Origin: Thermoanaerobaculia bacterium
GTDB taxonomy: Bacteria > Acidobacteriota > Thermoanaerobaculia > Thermoanaerobaculales > Sulfomarinibacteraceae
Length of the DNA stretch: 64,000 nucleotides
NCBI GenBank assembly: GCA_027061805.1
Contig: JAMOWA010000008.1
Coordinates: 86-64,085 of the forward strand
Direction of reading: 5' to 3'
The position numbers and the translations under genes were made by a program. Shown piece after piece: positions 1-64,000 of the stretch. The notes beneath the pieces are model-generated. The model was given only the letters and a program-made list of their open reading frames with translations, was not told the origin of the DNA and searched no databases. Within the stretch, counting starts at the first letter, position 1. The number at the start of each line of letters is the position of its first letter.

Positions 1-100
1 GTCGGCGACAGGGAGCGGCGTCAGGGTCCGTGGCCGTGACAGCGCCCGCGTCCGTGAACCTGTCCGTGTCAGGGTCCGTGCCTGCGCCCCTGCCCTCCCC
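1..100. repeat. Window-edge partial copy of the composite intergenic repeat (degenerate 6-bp array followed by a C-run block)
   Basis: Read directly: cagggtccgtggccgtgacag...gtccgtgtcagggtccgtgcc, then tgcgcccctgccctcccctcaccccctc (C-runs 87-108). The same modules recur at 590-1150, 9693-10348, 16709-17110 and 51519-52272. Confidence 0.75.
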
Positions 101-364
101 TCACCCCCTCTGGATCATCCGCCACAGCATGGCGCGCACCTCGTCGAGGAGCGTCAGTGCCTGCCGCGTACGTACCGCATCCACGGAACCGGATGCGAGG
201 AGCAGCCGGAGGTGGACGTCCAGCTCCCTCGCCGAGCCGTACGCCACACGCCAGTGGTAGCGCCGGTCCTTCCCGGCGCGGCCCTCGCCCTCGGCGATGT
301 TGGCGGGAACCGACGCTGCGGCCCGGACCACCTGGTCGGCCAGGGATCGGAACGGCGCCTTCAC
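101..364 (-). CDS. Four-helix-bundle protein (23S rRNA intervening-sequence protein / Avd-like family), possibly N-terminally truncated
   Basis: 87 aa with family-typical VPANIAEGEGR and YGSARELDVHL segments. GTG start. The in-frame upstream codons still read like helix 1 (..IALALAAAV) but have no start codon. The gene is embedded in repeat DNA. Confidence 0.7.
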   Translation of the reverse strand: MKAPFRSLADQVVRAAASVPANIAEGEGRAGKDRRYHWRVAYGSARELDVHLRLLLASGSVDAVRTRQALTLLDEVRAMLWRMIQRG

Positions 365-423
365 CGCAGCGGCCAGTGCGAGCGCGATCCCGGGGGCCTC
401 GATCCGTGGAGCGCGTGGGGCAG

Positions 424-573
424 GGTTTCCTCCCGTTCGTTCATGACATCCAGAAAGCCCCCGGGCCGCCCGGAGTCAGGGGTCGTGCAGCGACCGGCCG
501 CAGGCCGGCGTGCCCTTGACGCCGGGTGGCTCCGGGGGCTACATCCCCATCACAGAACGAACGGGAGGAAACC
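424..573. repeat. 150-bp unit bounded by perfect 19-bp inverted repeats (MITE-like element or long hairpin)
   Basis: GGTTTCCTCCCGTTCGTTC at 424-442 and its exact reverse complement GAACGAACGGGAGGAAACC at 555-573, 112 bp apart. Confidence 0.8.
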
Positions 574-589
574 GGCAACGCGCGGGAAC

Positions 590-1150
590 GAGAGCAGCCA
601 CGATCGTGGCCGTGTCCGCGGCCGTGGCCGTGACAGTGTCCGTGTCGGTGTCCGTGCCTGTGACCGTGCCTGTGACCGTGTCCGGGTCATGGTCGGGGAC
701 GGCAGCGGCATCGGCGCCGGCGGGCGGCGACCGCGAACGGCAGCCGCGGCGGTGTCCGTGTCGGTGTCGGTGTCGGGGTCCGGGTCCGGGTCGATGACCC
801 CCACGTGTCATCCCGACCGAGCGAGCGGAGCGAGCGAGTGGAGGGATCTGCCCCGTCCATGGACGGTATCCAGGACCGGGAAGTGCCGGCTTCGTTCGGA
901 AGATCCCTCGACTCCGCGAGGCAGAGCCTCGCTCCGCTCGGGATGGCAGGGGAGGGCTGCGCACCGTCCGTGACGGTGGCCGTGTCCGTGTCCGTGTCGG
1001 TGTCGGTGTCGGTGTCCGTGTCCGTGTCCGGGTCAGGGCCAGGGTCAGGGCCAGGGCCACAGTCAGGGTCAGCGTCGGTGACCGGGTCCGTGACCGTGTC
1101 CGTGCCAGTGACCGCGACCGTGTCAGTGACCGGGACCGGGTCGGTGACGG
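590..1150. repeat. Composite repeat locus A: 6-bp arrays (GTGTCC/GTGACC/GTGTCG/GGGTCC/CAGGGC), interrupted by a hairpin element at 809-945
   Basis: Arrays at about 606-700, 751-800 and 966-1150. Open in all six frames, giving (TD)n, (VS)n and (RT/RV)n pseudo-translations in the ORF track. Confidence 0.85.
809..945. other. Imperfect long inverted repeat / multi-stem hairpin (candidate structured RNA or DNA cruciform)
   Basis: Pairings read directly: catcccg(809-815)/cgggatg(939-945); agcggagcgag(824-834)/ctcgctccgct(928-938); gagggatct(841-849)/agatccctc(901-909). Inner palindrome ccgtccatggacgg (853-866). Confidence 0.4.
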
Positions 1151-4739: not shown

Positions 4740-5977
4740 GGTGTTCCGCCTCCCTTCGCGTCAGGAAGGTCCCGCTTGAGGATGACCATGGTCTGATCGT
4801 CTGCCGGGTGCTCTCTTCCCGAGAACTCCCGGACGGTGTCGAACACGAGATCCACGAGCTCGTCGGGGGACAGGGTACGGTTCTCCCCGAGAAGGCGGGC
4901 CAGCCGGGAGACGGAGAACTCCTCCTCCTCGGCCCGGCCGCGGGCGGTCTCGGTGATCCCGTCCGTGTAGAGCGCCAGGATGTCACCGGGCTCCATGCGG
5001 ACCAGGTCGATGGAGTAGTGAGTGGTCCGCCGCGGCCCGAGGATCATGCCGCCGGTCCTGAGGTACTCCACAGTGCCGTCCAGCCGGATGAGGATGCCTG
5101 GAGGATGCCCCGCGTTGCAGTACATGACGGTGCCTCTTGTGTCCACCTCGGCCAGGATGAGTGACACGAACTTGGTGGCCAGGCGGCTCCGGTGGATGAT
5201 GCCGTTGAGCCGTTCCAGGGTCCGGGTGAGCTTGTAGTCCCGGGTGAGGCCCATGCGGAGGCCCATGAAGATGTCGCGGACCTGGAGTGCGGCGGGCAGC
5301 CCGTGCCCGGTGGCGTCGGCGACCACCACGTTGAAGGTCTCGTCCGTCAGCGTGATGAAGTCGTAGAAGTCCCCGCCGACGACCTCGGCAGGGATGGACC
5401 GGGCCGCGAGCCGGAAGTCCCCGTAGCTCGGTGTCCGCCGGGGAAGGATGGAGCCCTGGATGCGCCGGGCCTCCTCGAGGATCTCCATCATCTTCTCCTC
5501 GCGCAGCTTCTGGTTGATGGCGAAGCGCACGATGTTCAGCGCGGCGATCAGGTCCTCGGACATGCCGGTACCCGGCACCACGTCGAACGCCAGGGCGTAG
5601 GCGCCATCCGCCACCACGATGGCCGCGAACTGCTCCCCGGTACCCAGCTCGGCCTCCAGCTCCCGGTCCACGCCGGCATCGGAGAGGCTCATGACCACCG
5701 AGCCCTCGTCCAGGAGGCGTTCCATGGCCGGGTAGCTCCGGCCGATCCGCCGCCCGATGGCCTGCCTCCCGGTCCGGCCGAAGGTCGCCACCAGTACGTA
5801 ATTGCTGTCGTCGTCCCTCTCGTAGATCCGCCCTCCCACGAGCCCCAGGTCGGAGGAGAAGTTCTCCACGAGGTGCTCGGCGGTCTCGCGGATCGTCTCC
5901 AGGGGGGTGGAGCCCCTGGCGATGGTCTCGAGCGCCCCTTCGATACGGCGGAAAAGGGAGATGGCGCGGCGCGACAT
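4736..5977 (-). CDS. GAF-domain PP2C-type (SpoIIE/RsbU-like) serine phosphatase
   Basis: 413 aa. The C-terminal half has GGDFYDF ... VADATGHG ... LYTDGITE motifs typical of SpoIIE/PP2C phosphatases. Confidence 0.85.
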   Translation of the reverse strand: MSRRAISLFRRIEGALETIARGSTPLETIRETAEHLVENFSSDLGLVGGRIYERDDDSNYVLVATFGRTGRQAIGRRIGRSYPAMERLLDEGSVVMSLSDAGVDRELEAELGTGEQFAAIVVADGAYALAFDVVPGTGMSEDLIAALNIVRFAINQKLREEKMMEILEEARRIQGSILPRRTPSYGDFRLAARSIPAEVVGGDFYDFITLTDETFNVVVADATGHGLPAALQVRDIFMGLRMGLTRDYKLTRTLERLNGIIHRSRLATKFVSLILAEVDTRGTVMYCNAGHPPGILIRLDGTVEYLRTGGMILGPRRTTHYSIDLVRMEPGDILALYTDGITETARGRAEEEEFSVSRLARLLGENRTLSPDELVDLVFDTVREFSGREHPADDQTMVILKRDLPDAKGGGTP

Positions 5978-9187: not shown

Positions 9188-9697
9188 GTGAGGGTGCTCC
9201 TCGGCCTCGGCGGCAACACCGGGGAGGTGCGCCGGGCGTTTGCCCGCGCGCTGGGGGAGCTCGGCGCCTGGCCCGGGGTGGATCGGGTGGTGGGCGCCTC
9301 GGCACTCTACCGCACCAGGGCCGTCGGGCCGGAGCAACCGGATTTCCTGAACATGGCGGCACTGGTCGTCGTGAGCGGGAGTCTCCTGGGGTTCCTGGAG
9401 CTGTGCCAGGAGCTGGAGCGTGGGGCCGGGAGGGACCGGGGGGGCGAGAGCCGGTGGGGGCCGAGGCCGCTGGACCTGGATCTCCTGCTGGCGGAGGAGG
9501 CCGTCCATCGTGGACCCCGGCTCACGCTGCCCCACTCGCACTTCCACGAGCGTGCCTTCGCCCTGGTGCCTGCAGCGGAGCTGGTGCCCGGCTGGAGCCA
9601 CCCCCTCCTGGGCCGCACCGTGGGCGAGCTGGCCGCGGAGGCCCTCGCCCGGGACCCCGGGGCCGTCGAGCGCGCGGCCCGACCCGACCATCCGTGA
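9188..9697 (+). CDS. folK: 2-amino-4-hydroxy-6-hydroxymethyldihydropteridine diphosphokinase (HPPK)
   Basis: The C-terminal 169 codons of the 987-aa track ORF read VLLGLGGNTG ... YRTRAVGPEQPDFLN ... RPLDLDLL ... PHSHFHERAFAL. Start is GTG 9188 or 9194. Confidence 0.85.
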   Translation: MRVLLGLGGNTGEVRRAFARALGELGAWPGVDRVVGASALYRTRAVGPEQPDFLNMAALVVVSGSLLGFLELCQELERGAGRDRGGESRWGPRPLDLDLLLAEEAVHRGPRLTLPHSHFHERAFALVPAAELVPGWSHPLLGRTVGELAAEALARDPGAVERAARPDHP

Positions 9698-10348
9698 AAC
9701 GTGAAATGTGAAACGTGAAACGAATGAGGGTGGGGAGGTTAGGACGTTAGGAAGTTAGGACGTTTGGAGGTTGGGAAGTCAGGGGGCCAGAAGGTCCCTC
9801 CGCCAAACCGTGCGGAGGCGGAATGCGAGATGTGACAGTCCACCCGGACGACACCAACCCACCCGCTCGTGATTGGGATCGCGATTCTGCCCTTGACACC
9901 GACCCTGACCGTGACCGTGTCCGTGTCCGTGACCGTGTCCGTGTCCGTGACCGTGGCCCCGTCCCTGACCCCGCCACCGACACGGACACGGGCGCCGTCA
10001 AGGACGCGGACCCCGACCCTGGCAGCACCCTCGATCCTGATCCAGATCCTGATCCCGGCGTGGCCCGGGAGGGGCCGCGCCCCCTCGCCTCTGCGCCCCT
10101 GGTCCCCGTCCGGTGGGCGGCGGCCGGGTGTGGGAAAACGGTAGCGGCCGATGCCGGCCCCGACGCCGACCTTGACCGTGACCGTGTCAGGGTCCGTGAC
10201 CGTGTCCGTGACGGTGTGCAACGCTCCGCATGCCGGCTGCTGCGTTCTCCCCCTCGCCTCCGCGCCCCTGCGCCCCTGCTCTCCCGGGCGGGCGGGGGAC
10301 GCCTTCACCTCTTCACGCTTCACCTCTTCCCCGGGGGGGGGGGGGGGC
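9693..10348. repeat. Composite repeat locus B, filling the whole folK / response-regulator convergent spacer
   Basis: Left end: 7-bp array (CGTGAAA)x4 starting inside the folK stop codon, then an 8-bp array GTTAGGAC-like. Centre: 6-bp arrays and C-run blocks. Right end: junction motif ccgggcgggcgggggacgccttcac (10284-10308), then a CTTCACSN array and a G15 tract. Confidence 0.85.
10333..10347. repeat. Homopolymeric G15 tract
   Basis: Fifteen consecutive G (10333-10347), ending 1 nt from the response-regulator stop codon (10349-10351). Confidence 0.9.
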
Positions 10349-11083
10349 CTACCCCTCCGGCTCGCTGGTGAAGCGGTAGCCCACGCCGCGGACCGTGTGG
10401 AAGTGTCGCGGGTGGTGGGGGTCGTCCTCGAAGTGGCGGCGGAGGCGGTGGATGAAGGTGTCCAGGGTCCGGGTGGCCGTGTCGAAGGTGTAGCCCCAGA
10501 CCTGCTCCAGCAGCTCGCCCCGGCTCAGCACCCGCCCCTCGTTCTCTGCGAAGAACCGGACGAGCATGAGCTCCCGCTCGGTGAGGCCCACGGTGCCTGC
10601 GATGGTGGTGGCCCTCATGGCGGTGAGGTCCACGGTGTTCGTGCCGAAGCGGATCACGGGCCCGGACCGTGAGGCGCTGCGCGACCATGCGGATCGGCGG
10701 AGGATGCCGCGGATCCTCAGGGTGAGCTCCTCCACGAGGAACGGCTTGGTGAGGTAGTCATCGGCGCCGACCCTGAGACCGAGGATCCTGTCGGCGTCGC
10801 TGCCCCGCGCCGTGAGGAAGAGCACGGGCACGTTGTCGCCGCGTTCCCGGAGGCACCGGCAGACATCGAGGCCGTCCCGGCCGGGGAGCATGATGTCCAG
10901 CACCACCAGGTCCGCCGAGCCGGGGACCGCCTGCAGCAGCTCGAGGGCGTCCTCTCCGGTGGTCACGTGGCGGATGGAGAACCCCTCCAGCTCCAGGTTC
11001 CTGATGAGGCCCCTGGCCAGGAGCTCGTCGTCCTCCACCAGGAGGAGCCGTGGTCCGGGCGTCTTGCGGTCCGTGGTGTCCAT
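10349..11083 (-). CDS. OmpR/PhoB-family response regulator (receiver + winged-helix); no adjacent kinase
   Basis: Start MDTTDRK (ATG 11083). Receiver motifs LLLVEDD and VVLDIMLPGRDG. C-terminal LTERELMLV ... TVRGVGYRF. Confidence 0.9.
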   Translation of the reverse strand: MDTTDRKTPGPRLLLVEDDELLARGLIRNLELEGFSIRHVTTGEDALELLQAVPGSADLVVLDIMLPGRDGLDVCRCLRERGDNVPVLFLTARGSDADRILGLRVGADDYLTKPFLVEELTLRIRGILRRSAWSRSASRSGPVIRFGTNTVDLTAMRATTIAGTVGLTERELMLVRFFAENEGRVLSRGELLEQVWGYTFDTATRTLDTFIHRLRRHFEDDPHHPRHFHTVRGVGYRFTSEPEG

Positions 11084-16708: not shown

Positions 16709-17110
16709 CGGCGGGTCCGGCCGCGGAACCCGACGCCGCCACCGTCGCGGACACGGGCGCGGACAGGGTCGGGGGAGCTGAGGCGCAGGGGAGCAGGGGC
16801 GCAGGGGCGAAGGGGGGCATCGGCACGGACACGGTCACGGACACGGTCACGGTCGCGGACGCGGTCACGGACCCCGACCCTGACGCTGATCCCCGCCCTG
16901 TCCCGGACCCCGACGCGGCCGCCGTTCGCCGACGCCGACGCTGCCGCTGCCGCGGTCACTGGCACTGTCACGGACAGGGGTGCAGACACGGACACGGATA
17001 CAGGTACCGTCGCGGGAGCAGGGGAGCAGGGGAGCAGGGGAGCAGGGGAGCGGGGGCGAGGGGGAGCATCGGCACGGTCACGGTCACGGATACAGGGGAG
17101 GTCCCCGACG
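16709..17110. repeat. Composite repeat locus C (two tandem units of G-run block + CATCGG + 6-bp array)
   Basis: G-run blocks at 16771-16817 and 17014-17064 (GGGGAGCA x4-5), each followed by catcggcacggacacggtcacgg-type hexamer arrays. Lies between the recA stop and the dsbA-like start. Confidence 0.85.
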
Positions 17111-49490: not shown

Positions 49491-49808
49491 ATGCCCACAT
49501 TCACGTACGGAGATCTCTCGATCGAGGTGGACGAGGACGGCTTCATGCAGGAGCCGGAGCAGTGGAACGAGGAGGTGGCCAAGGCACTGGCGACGACGGA
49601 AGGTGTCGATGAGCTCACCGACGAGCACTGGAAGGTCGTCAACTACCTTCGGGAATACTACCTCCAGTTTGGCGTGGCTCCCATGATCCGCAAGCTCTGC
49701 AAGGAGACCGGCTTCAACCTGAAGAAGATCTACGAGCTCTTCCCCTCCGGTCCGGCCAAGGGCGCCTGCAAGGTGGCGGGGCTGCCCAAGCCCACCGGCT
49801 GCGTCTGA
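49491..49808 (+). CDS. dsrC: DsrC (TusE/DsrC/DsvC family) with both conserved C-terminal cysteines
   Basis: 105 aa. Ends CKVAGLPKPTGCV (Cys-x10-Cys-Val). Strong RBS AAAGGAGG. Confidence 0.95.
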   Translation: MPTFTYGDLSIEVDEDGFMQEPEQWNEEVAKALATTEGVDELTDEHWKVVNYLREYYLQFGVAPMIRKLCKETGFNLKKIYELFPSGPAKGACKVAGLPKPTGCV

Positions 49809-49860: not shown

Positions 49861-49939
49861 GGTGAAGAGGTGAGGCTGTGAAGGACGAGACGGCCTCAAC
49901 CTCGCTGCTGCTTCGTGTCCGATCGGAGGTGTGGGAGCC

Positions 49940-51518: not shown

Positions 51519-52272
51519 GGGGAGGGACGGGAGGTGAGGCGGTGAGGGTGTGAGGGCGTGAGGGCGGGAAGTGGAGGGGACATGGGCGGGAGCGCAGGGG
51601 CGAGGGGGAGCAGGGGAGCAGGGGAGCAGGGGAGCAGGGGGGTCGATCGCCGTCGGGGTCACGGACACGGACACGGATACGGACACGGCCACGGTCACGG
51701 CCACGGTCACGGCCACGGACACGGCCACGGTCACGGCCACGGACCCGAACCCGGACACGGGCACGGACGGGGGCGCAGGGGAGCCGATCCCGGACACGGG
51801 CACGGACCCCGACACGAACACAGGCACGGACATCGTCACCGACAGGGACACCGATACGGACACGGTCACGGACACGGACGCGGACACGGACGCGGACACG
51901 GACGCGGACACGGTCACGGGCACGGACGGGGGCGCAGGGGAGTCGATCACGGACACGGTCGCCGACCCGGATCCCGACGCGGGCGCCGTTCCCGATCACC
52001 GCCCACGGCCGCCGCTCCCGTCCGCCGTCCACCGCCCCGGCTGTCCTTGACCCTGTCCCTGATCCCGGCCCCGACCCTGACGCCGACACCGACACGGACA
52101 CCGCCACGGGCACGGCCACGGGCACGGACACGGGCACGGCCACGGGCACGGTCACGGTCACGGACACGGGCAGGGTCACCGTCACGGACACGGGTCCTTC
52201 TCCGGGTGGGCGGGGGACGCCTTCACGTCTTCACGCCCTCACGCCCTCACGCCCTCACGTCCTGACCTCCCC
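51519..52272. repeat. Composite repeat locus D with inverted terminal 8-bp arrays
   Basis: Left GTGAGGNN array (51531-51568). G-run block (51597-51642). Three hexamer arrays separated by gggggcgcaggggagNcgatc junctions. Junction motif ccgggtgggcgggggacgccttcac (52202-52226). Right array CTTCACGT/CCTCACGC (52221-52265), the reverse complement of the left array. Confidence 0.85.
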
Positions 52273-63959: not shown

Positions 63960-64000
63960 CCAGGGTGAGGACGTGAGGATGGCCCCCGCCCGCCCGGGGG
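63960..64000. repeat. Window-edge start of another composite repeat copy (inverted orientation)
   Basis: gtgaggacgtgaggatggcccccgcccgcccggggg is an 8-bp GTGAGGNN array plus the reverse complement of the junction motif seen at 10284-10308 and 52202-52226. Confidence 0.7.

Follow-up and report, generated by a model that had tools for sequence, protein, structure and literature searches.

Short-period mosaic repeats of an uncultured acidobacterium and their association with PF05635 gene cassettes

Only a few cultured bacteria are known to carry interspersed mosaic repeats, whose mode of spread is for the most part an unsolved question. Short tandemly repeated repetitive (STRR) sequences form lineage-specific 7-nt tandem arrays at many intergenic loci of heterocystous cyanobacteria. 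Here we describe a family of short-period mosaic repeats in a 64,000-nt stretch of DNA (hereafter the window; contig JAMOWA010000008.1 of assembly GCA_027061805.1, positions 86 to 64,085). The host belongs to the Acidobacteriota, as the neighbours of its RecA are named Acidobacteria or Thermoanaerobaculales bacteria. The family, which comes from an uncultured, soil-type organism, is unusually legible: it has defined ends and a core, it shows length polymorphism, the corresponding sites of sister genomes are empty, and there is a candidate parent cassette. We favour, with a probability of roughly 0.6, the explanation that the loci are one lineage-specific family of non-coding mosaic repeats, derived from and partly still attached to cassettes that carry a PF05635 gene, and that these repeats were seeded by copying and grew by slippage.

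The window has a G+C content of ~69%, and repeats account for 2,514 bp of it (3.9%). Together with its flanks and with loci from the JGI metagenome Ga0256835, we examined ~146 kb of non-redundant sequence of the same organism. L-numbers (L002, L003, and so on) are labels of fetched loci, among which L003 and L002 hold the continuations of the window's ends.

Modules of the repeat family

Six loci of the window had been proposed in the initial annotation to share their building blocks. Tandem Repeats Finder (TRF) bears this out, placing arrays of periods 6, 7, and 8 where they had been described (605-1148, 9693-10329, 16772-17089, and 51534-52263). Each of the six loci carries the modules of the family: hexamer arrays (CACGGN/GACCCY), blocks of (GGGGAGCA)n, end arrays of the GTGAA type with 7-8-bp units, and a junction with a G-block. 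The triple hexamer unit CACGGNCACGGNCACGG, with one mismatch allowed, occurs 67 times against 0.03 expected, never outside the named loci; the G-block pair GGGGNGCNGGGGNGCNGGGG occurs 15 times against 0.12 expected, and CGAT/ATCG linkers join such blocks to the hexamer arrays as claimed. The 25-nt junction (J) is exact at 10284-10308 and 52202-52226 (0 expected). A reverse-strand copy at 63974-63997 had been called near-identical, but its 15-nt G-block alone is exact; the remainder carries a 1-nt deletion and three mismatches and was missed by a 3-mismatch search. Judged by its sequence, this third copy is related to J but not near-identical to it.

Two short copies, L034 and L027, represent the basic element without an inflated interior. 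Their parts run in the order (CGTGAAA)n, CGAAWGAGG, (GGTYAGGAC)n, CTCCGCAYGCCGG, (CCCCTGCK)n, J (here CCGGGYGGGYGGGGGACRYCTTCAC), (NYCTTCAC)n, and a second G-block; two copies of the G-block bracket the J-side end array. Locus B, between folK and a response-regulator gene, has the same order of parts and amounts to the basic element enlarged by an insert of ~440 bp, made of hexamer arrays and GC-rich sequence. The ends of the element are inverted GTGAA-type arrays of 7- or 8-bp units, which at locus E form a 43-nt terminal inverted repeat with 88% identity and at locus B pair a period of 7 with one of 8, without a BLAST-level match. In many cases the hexamer arrays surround a conserved core that is not itself repetitive, module N.

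The homology of the loci extends beyond simple repeats, because J is present in 17 copies in the organism's 146 kb, module N matches L003 12498-12563 at 95% identity over 66 nt (and L029 8286-8324 at 95% over 39 nt), a palindromic module M recurs, and L034, L027, and locus B share an order of parts. These observations bear on a reading without mobility, in which microsatellites grew in situ from slippage or repair bias and their units are alike by convergence. Such growth would fit the unit-multiple changes in array length and the local homogenisation of units, and the repeat-free recA-dsbA spacer of a relative holds GGAGCAGGAGCGG- and CACGG-like strings that are possible seeds. However, convergence cannot account for the shared non-repetitive J, N, and M modules, nor for the common module order of L034, L027, and locus B or the alignment of a larger module with PF05635 gene ends (see below). 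We consider growth in situ without mobility quite improbable.

Within the hexamer arrays, alternating unit variants form runs (CACGGC/CACGGT, CACGGA/CGCGGA, CACGGG/CACGGC), which point to local amplification of 12-18-bp higher-order units. Over 37 kb the window and the corresponding ENA contigs differ, besides four substitutions in a run of 15 G (G15), by just two indels: 18 bp (3 units) at 9909-9926 and 6 bp at 980-985, both within hexamer arrays. Under the explanation we favour, the 6-8-bp arrays would lengthen and shorten locally by slipped-strand mispairing, because the 6- and 18-bp indels between assemblies are confined to arrays and the alternating units are locally homogenised. Conservation among 788 hexamer units is 94% at C1 and G5 and 72-81% at A2, C3, and G4, and position 6 is almost free; the search for units itself demanded similarity to the CACGG core.

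End arrays differ from interior arrays in their stop codons. On the inward strand, 16 of 18 end arrays carry stops in all three frames, against none on the opposite strand, and interior arrays have stops in 0-1 frames. Read inward, each unit of the end arrays holds TGA or TAG. The left end array of locus E stops three frames, and so does the left end of locus B; L034 and L027 have the same end as locus B. Arrays of (CGTGAAA)n lie at window position 9693, L027 6739 and 6836, L002 8389-8418, and L003 12761-12787. The TGA stop of folK (9695-9697) falls within the first CGTGAAA unit, and the stop codon of the response regulator occupies 10349-10351, so both ends of locus B are as first described; the TGA of one PF05635 gene (L002 8414-8416) likewise lies within a first CGTGAAA unit. 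The end arrays would thereby, we infer, act as three-frame stops that halt ribosomes from neighbouring genes and make insertion at gene ends harmless. At the folK stop, a sister genome reads ATCCGTGA, and the CGTGAAA array may have joined the end of folK at a CGTGA microhomology.

The same frames must be weighed for a coding role, in which the loci would encode low-complexity proteins such as Asp-Thr or Asp-Pro repeats (GAC-ACG frame, G-N-C periodicity, high GC3). Several frames are open across entire loci, C1/G5 conservation matches GNC codons, and a gene caller set a 370-aa open reading frame (ORF) over locus A. However, most loci were left uncalled, modules of period 7 and 8 are unable to hold a frame, end arrays stop all frames, and the ORFs share no start codon or ribosome-binding site. 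Between convergent genes, elements also border a stop codon at either end. The loci do not form a single reading frame: the register of the hexamers changes modulo 3 inside loci A, D, and E, and no ORF across the loci matches a Pfam family. On these grounds, together with the three-frame stop arrays, the coding reading was rejected, and we give it next to no weight.

A further concern is that the loci are assembly artefacts of low-complexity reads. The G15 at 10333-10347 differs from the ENA contig at four positions and, on this comparison, is probably a poly-G sequencing or consensus error of the window's assembly, because the ENA contig has there the regular second G-block of the family, ACCGGGCGGGAGGGCGGGC. 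Contig ends are also frequent inside arrays (the Logan contig ends at window position 1095, and L044 and L048-L053 end in this way too). Against this, the window's DNA is also found in ENA ERZ27262658 (contigs k141_683705 and k141_5780), in JGI Ga0256835, and in the Logan assembly of SRR7968104, and these carry the same repeat loci, recovered by three different assemblers from reads that are possibly common. All three yield the same complex, non-periodic order of modules and identical unique modules, and related arrays occur beside the same gene family in other samples and species. An artefact of assembly, which the initial annotation had named as a way to be wrong, is very improbable. In practical terms, loci of this kind break short-read assemblies, draw false gene calls, and form hot spots of predicted G-quadruplex (G4) motifs.

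Distribution, empty sites, and possible host functions

A junction-seeded census, as the initial annotation had proposed, found J elsewhere as chance matches in genes. A degenerate J pattern gave 14 matches among 185,579 GTDB representative genomes, all of them chance matches within coding sequence. In JGI metagenomes there are 10 genuine J matches, all in Ga0256835 (the same organism), and 11 foreign ones due to chance; viral contigs hold one chance match, on a contig shared with one of the JGI matches. No arrays lie near any foreign match in these GTDB, JGI, and viral sets, and every foreign match is inside coding sequence. As far as these sequence searches tell, the family is specific to the window's lineage.

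The closest relatives are two metagenome-assembled genomes (MAGs) at NCBI, GCA_054020435.1 and GCA_054027355.1, and one ENA contig, with RecA 95-96% identical and the gene order around recA preserved. The folK-regulator spacer measures 655 bp in the window and 22 bp in the relatives, and the recA-dsbA spacer ~500 bp in the window and 118 or 211 bp in the relatives. Both spacers are empty of elements in L019, L020, and L021, and TRF found no such arrays in ~39 kb of distinct non-cassette DNA of the relatives; a more distant relative likewise has none. The orthologous sites are empty in the relatives, and therefore the elements are gains in the window's lineage. A propagating family rather than a set of random microsatellites had been suspected from the window by itself; recurrent non-repetitive modules, short repeat-free orthologous spacers in the closest available genomes, and the restriction of J to this organism sustain that view. 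The elements occupy convergent, tandem, and divergent spacers as reported (locus B, the recA/DsbA-like pair, and locus E, respectively), and the right-hand neighbour of locus E is patatin-like. A fixed orientation relative to replication was ruled out, as both orientations occur on a strand with uniform GC skew.

The arrays could also be cis elements useful to the host, either platforms bound by a protein (a pentameric Avd-like or a nucleoid protein) or G4 insulators or terminators. Consistent with this, all three four-tetrad G4 motifs and 8 of the 20 three-tetrad motifs of the window lie in repeats; G arrays supply all three of the former, two of them in locus D. The hexamer, with C1 and G5 conserved and position 6 nearly free, has the look of a constrained core (with the caveat on the search given above), the relatives' short spacers carry hairpins where the window has elements, which would replace them, and several lineages have arrays directly next to the leader of a PF05635 gene. 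On the other side, sister species do without elements at the same spacers, consensus scans of loci B, D, and E show no sigma-70-like promoter or intrinsic terminator, and folds of J and of the module around it (supermodule S) gain no extra stability over shuffled sequences (z-scores -0.8 to +2.1). Orientation and order of modules differ among loci, and array length varies within the population. A host function is doubtful to us, and the elements are probably selfish or neutral DNA that is tolerated just between genes. A separate proposal, that the junction is a hairpin or terminator, was ruled out by folds no better than shuffles and the lack of a terminator consensus.

PF05635 cassettes as a candidate source

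The link to PF05635 lay beyond the reach of the initial annotation, and one such gene is at window 101-451. To our knowledge, PF05635 genes, which are very common in bacterial genomes, have had no known role outside diversity-generating retroelements (DGRs) since their discovery in 23S rRNA intervening sequences (IVSs). Their pairing with a covarying hairpin and period-6 arrays provides testable partners for the protein and a first handle on these genes. PF05635 is the 23S rRNA IVS protein family and resembles the DGR accessory protein Avd (PMC10053308); PDB 2GSC is a match. The family is multi-copy, with at least 13 clusters at 84-92% identity, many on contigs shorter than 1 kb. Six distinct copies were found in the 146 kb by tblastn, and all six lie in or beside arrays, a count that is biased because four of them come from loci retrieved by J. 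Unbiased support comes from the window copy and from four loci of other organisms.

In these four other Acidobacteriota (L044, L046, L048, and L053), period-6 arrays directly abut the PF05635 gene or its leader. In a sister MAG, the stop codon of the gene is followed by ~180 bp of tandem CACGGN, looser hexamer repeats, and then module M, and the other 17 kb retrieved from that contig holds no array. CACSGA arrays flank two divergent PF05635 copies in a second lineage, and in two further lineages the leader of the gene directly adjoins a perfect (GGCAGC)n array with which the contig (343 kb long in one case) terminates. By reading of the sequences, CACGGN is on the sense strand of the PF05635 gene in ~6 of 8 downstream arrays. 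Supermodule S (C-block, end array, and J) aligns with PF05635 genes of the 'WRLLHPPAR' subfamily over their last ~30 nt and with the array downstream of them; the junction is therefore a duplicated copy of a cassette end.

Two cassettes stand in tandem at the left end of the window (window 1-590 and L003 11624-12300). Copy 1 is 82% identical to copy 2 at the protein level (tblastn), and it may be a decaying duplicate, because CTG replaces its canonical ATG start and it has an internal deletion relative to copy 2. A hairpin of ~160 nt lies 5' of each PF05635 gene, and 23 of its 53 pairs show compensatory double changes among 10 leaders. Apart from the window's, leaders are at L003 11795-11960, L041 4400-4575, L028 2578-2752, and L023 4652-4812, and in L046, L048, and L053. 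The inner helix of the hairpin, GTCAAGGG...CCCTTGAC, is invariant, and the outer one sequesters both the Shine-Dalgarno sequence and the start codon. An Rfam search of the window at gathering threshold returned no match, and an E-value search of the leader and cassette region found no family bar one spurious microRNA match. The hairpin is a candidate for a new structured leader or processing site. Other short-period arrays, of (CCGCCGCCTTCCG)n and (CTGCCGCACCCCG)n at L039 4560-4653 and L043 285-330, come after remnants of the leader hairpin at which no PF05635 gene is present, and leader remnants may have been scattered too.

Two further modules accompany the family. Module M (GTCATCCCGA...GGGATCT...AGATCCC...TCGGGATGAC) adjoins PF05635 cassettes in two species. 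It is a candidate structured RNA or miniature inverted-repeat transposable element (MITE)-like sequence, and its three known copies are too few for covariation. Module U, a non-repetitive segment of ~200 bp, occurs outside the window at L002 5225-5430, L023 ~5150-5400 (reverse), and L039 4100-4290. It is flanked on both sides by CCTTCTCCGGG. Inside it is a stem, CCGGCGAGGC...GCCTCGCCGG, and immediately before J stands the hairpin GCCCGGCACGCGCYGCCGGGC.

From these parts we propose how the family arose. A full cassette would comprise the 160-nt leader hairpin, the PF05635 gene, and flanking short-period arrays. Pieces of it would have been copied into other intergenic spacers, as presence or absence in sister genomes and the shared non-repetitive modules suggest; these pieces would be the 3'-end C-block with GTGAA-type arrays, the duplicated block (the junction), G arrays, and hexamer arrays with the N core. 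Recombination between direct flanking arrays may delete the gene and leave gene-less 'solo' remnants. Loci B, D, and E have no PF05635 ORF and would be such gene-less derivatives.

Apart from the retrieval bias, several points weigh against this proposal. The orientation of hexamer arrays varies relative to both the G arrays and the PF05635 gene. When the spacers were aligned with those of relatives, neither a target-site duplication nor a sharp boundary of insertion could be placed, given how far the sister spacers have diverged. The fetched flanks contain no transposase, recombinase, or reverse transcriptase near any copy. Finally, array lengths are uncertain, because every sequence is from a short-read metagenome assembly. 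Alternatively, the PF05635 cassettes themselves could be an unrecognised mobile or self-copying element whose arrays are obligatory in cis, as a lattice for a pentameric protein or as the product of repeated copying of a short template by a trans-acting polymerase or reverse transcriptase, and the gene-less loci would be its non-autonomous offspring. We think this unlikely. A plasmid collection held no match to a PF05635 homologue.

The features of the window are listed in Table 1. A three-unit GTGAAG-type array (GGTGAAGAGGTGAGGCTGTGAAGG) at 49861-49884, outside the loci listed earlier, directly follows an intrinsic-terminator-like hairpin and T-run downstream of a gene that ends at 49808; it may be a rudimentary end array or a product of chance.

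Table 1. Coordinates of repeat modules and PF05635 features in the window
Feature	Position	Strand	Remarks
3' flank of PF05635 copy 1	1..100	-	Short G-unit block, then CACGGN/GACCCY hexamer array; the array runs leftward past the window into the second cassette (L003 11520-11780 is the continuation)
PF05635 gene copy 1 (23S_rRNA_IVP, Avd-like four-helix bundle)	101..451	-	Pfam E=3.1e-15
PF05635 leader, extended hairpin of ~160 nt	413..580	-	Outer 3' arm with Shine-Dalgarno sequence and start codon
Hexamer arrays 605-688 and 750-792 enclosing module N (685-752)	590..797	-	TRF
Module M, palindromic, ~150 bp (GTCATCCCGA...TCGGGATGAC)	800..960	.	Copies at L044 821-968 and L028 3076-3198; long-stem fold
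Hexamer arrays of CACGGN and GACCCT types	966..1150	-	TRF; 6-bp difference at 980-985 from ENA contig
Locus B left end arrays: (CGTGAAA)4 from the folK stop, then (GTTAGGAC)n	9693..9776	+	
Locus B interior: CACGGN arrays 9901-9970 and 10168-10217, GC-rich sequence between	9901..10217	-	
Supermodule S, beside the regulator's stop	10250..10348	-	Aligns with PF05635 gene 3' ends; on the - strand, C-block 10330-10348 (G15 in the window), (GTGAAGNN)n 10303-10329, J 10284-10308, (GGGGCGCA)n 10250-10283
Locus D, recA to DsbA-like gene (tandem)	16709..17110	+	TRF; G array 16772-16819, ATCG linker, hexamers 16824-16953 with N-like sequence, G array 17014-17068, hexamers 17073-17089
Locus E left terminal inverted repeat, (GTGAGGNN)n	51529..51571	+	88% complementary over 43 nt to 52229-52271
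Locus E interior	51594..52194	+	(GGGGAGCA)6, TCGATCG linker, ~44 units of CACGGN type whose 12-bp subpatterns are locally homogenised, N-like segment ~51965-52030, then GACCCY and CACGGG arrays
Locus E J (52202-52226) and right terminal inverted repeat, (NNCCTCAC)n	52202..52271	+	
Locus F start: GTGAGGAC GTGAGGAT, then C-block CCCCCGCCCGCCCGG	63964..64000	+	Extends ~520 bp past the window (L002 4915-5480); that part has G arrays, hexamer arrays, module U, J, and an end array

Comparison with known systems

The initial annotation did not assign the family to the repetitive extragenic palindromic (REP), bacterial interspersed mosaic element (BIME), or clustered regularly interspaced short palindromic repeat (CRISPR) classes, and this holds: there is no Rfam match, no palindromic REP structure, and no CRISPR spacing. 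Like BIMEs and REPs, the loci are non-coding intergenic mosaics of a few short motifs in variable order and orientation and in many copies. However, a REP unit is a ~35-nt imperfect palindrome that forms a hairpin and is handled by a REP-associated tyrosine transposase (RAYT), whereas the units here are 6-8 bp long and run head to tail; no RAYT is among the called genes of the ~146 kb of this incomplete genome. CRISPR repeats measure 23-50 bp and alternate with unique spacers, whereas the arrays described here have periods of 6, 7, and 8, head to tail without spacers, and within 10 kb of the loci no Pfam-annotated gene is a cas gene.

The BOX elements of Streptococcus pneumoniae (boxA-boxB(n)-boxC) are likewise modular, with differing conserved ends, a variable tandem interior, a distribution in one lineage, and no known mobility enzyme. 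Unlike our family, BOX modules are 45-59 bp long with stable RNA structures; the two have no sequence similarity, and BOX has no associated gene. We know of no account of STRRs that includes a conserved junction, G-blocks, inverted arrays at the ends, or a PF05635 gene. The (CGTGAAA)n arrays resemble STRRs in being tandem heptanucleotide arrays at multiple intergenic loci, but their units differ (compare CCCCAGT), as does the phylum of the host. The term STRR appears in PMC2670836.

The 23S rRNA IVSs of Leptospira and Coxiella, which carry an S23p/PF05635 ORF, have in common with the cassettes the same protein family and an extended covarying helix by the ORF. An IVS has been described as a selfish element of unknown mechanism (PMC4990558). 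Unlike IVSs, which are inserted in helix 25 or 45 of 23S rRNA, the cassettes lie outside rRNA: the window has neither rRNA nor another Rfam family, and the neighbours are ordinary protein genes. Arrays, unreported for IVSs, flank the cassettes, and the hairpin is 5' of the ORF rather than enclosing it.

DGRs offer a second parallel, since PF05635 resembles Avd and a non-coding repeat follows avd in DGRs. Unlike DGRs, the loci have no pair of template and variable repeats, and no reverse transcriptase family is among the called genes around any PF05635 copy. DGR-style adenine mutagenesis of CACGGN was ruled out, as positions 3 and 4 (C and G) vary like A2 and (GGCAGC)n arrays are perfect despite their A. 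Foldback elements and MITEs share with the family presence or absence among related genomes. The inverted end arrays of locus E, 43 nt at 88%, recall their ends, and those of locus B do so less closely. Filled and empty spacers align too poorly to place the boundaries at which a target-site duplication would lie. The family differs in that no partner transposase is known, and in that foldback elements are eukaryotic.

We found no description of this repeat family in the literature. On the comparisons made here, its behaviour resembles that of BIME, BOX, and STRR repeats, and its ends resemble those of foldback-type elements. Its additional feature, apparently unreported, is the joint travel of short-period arrays and Avd-like gene cassettes.

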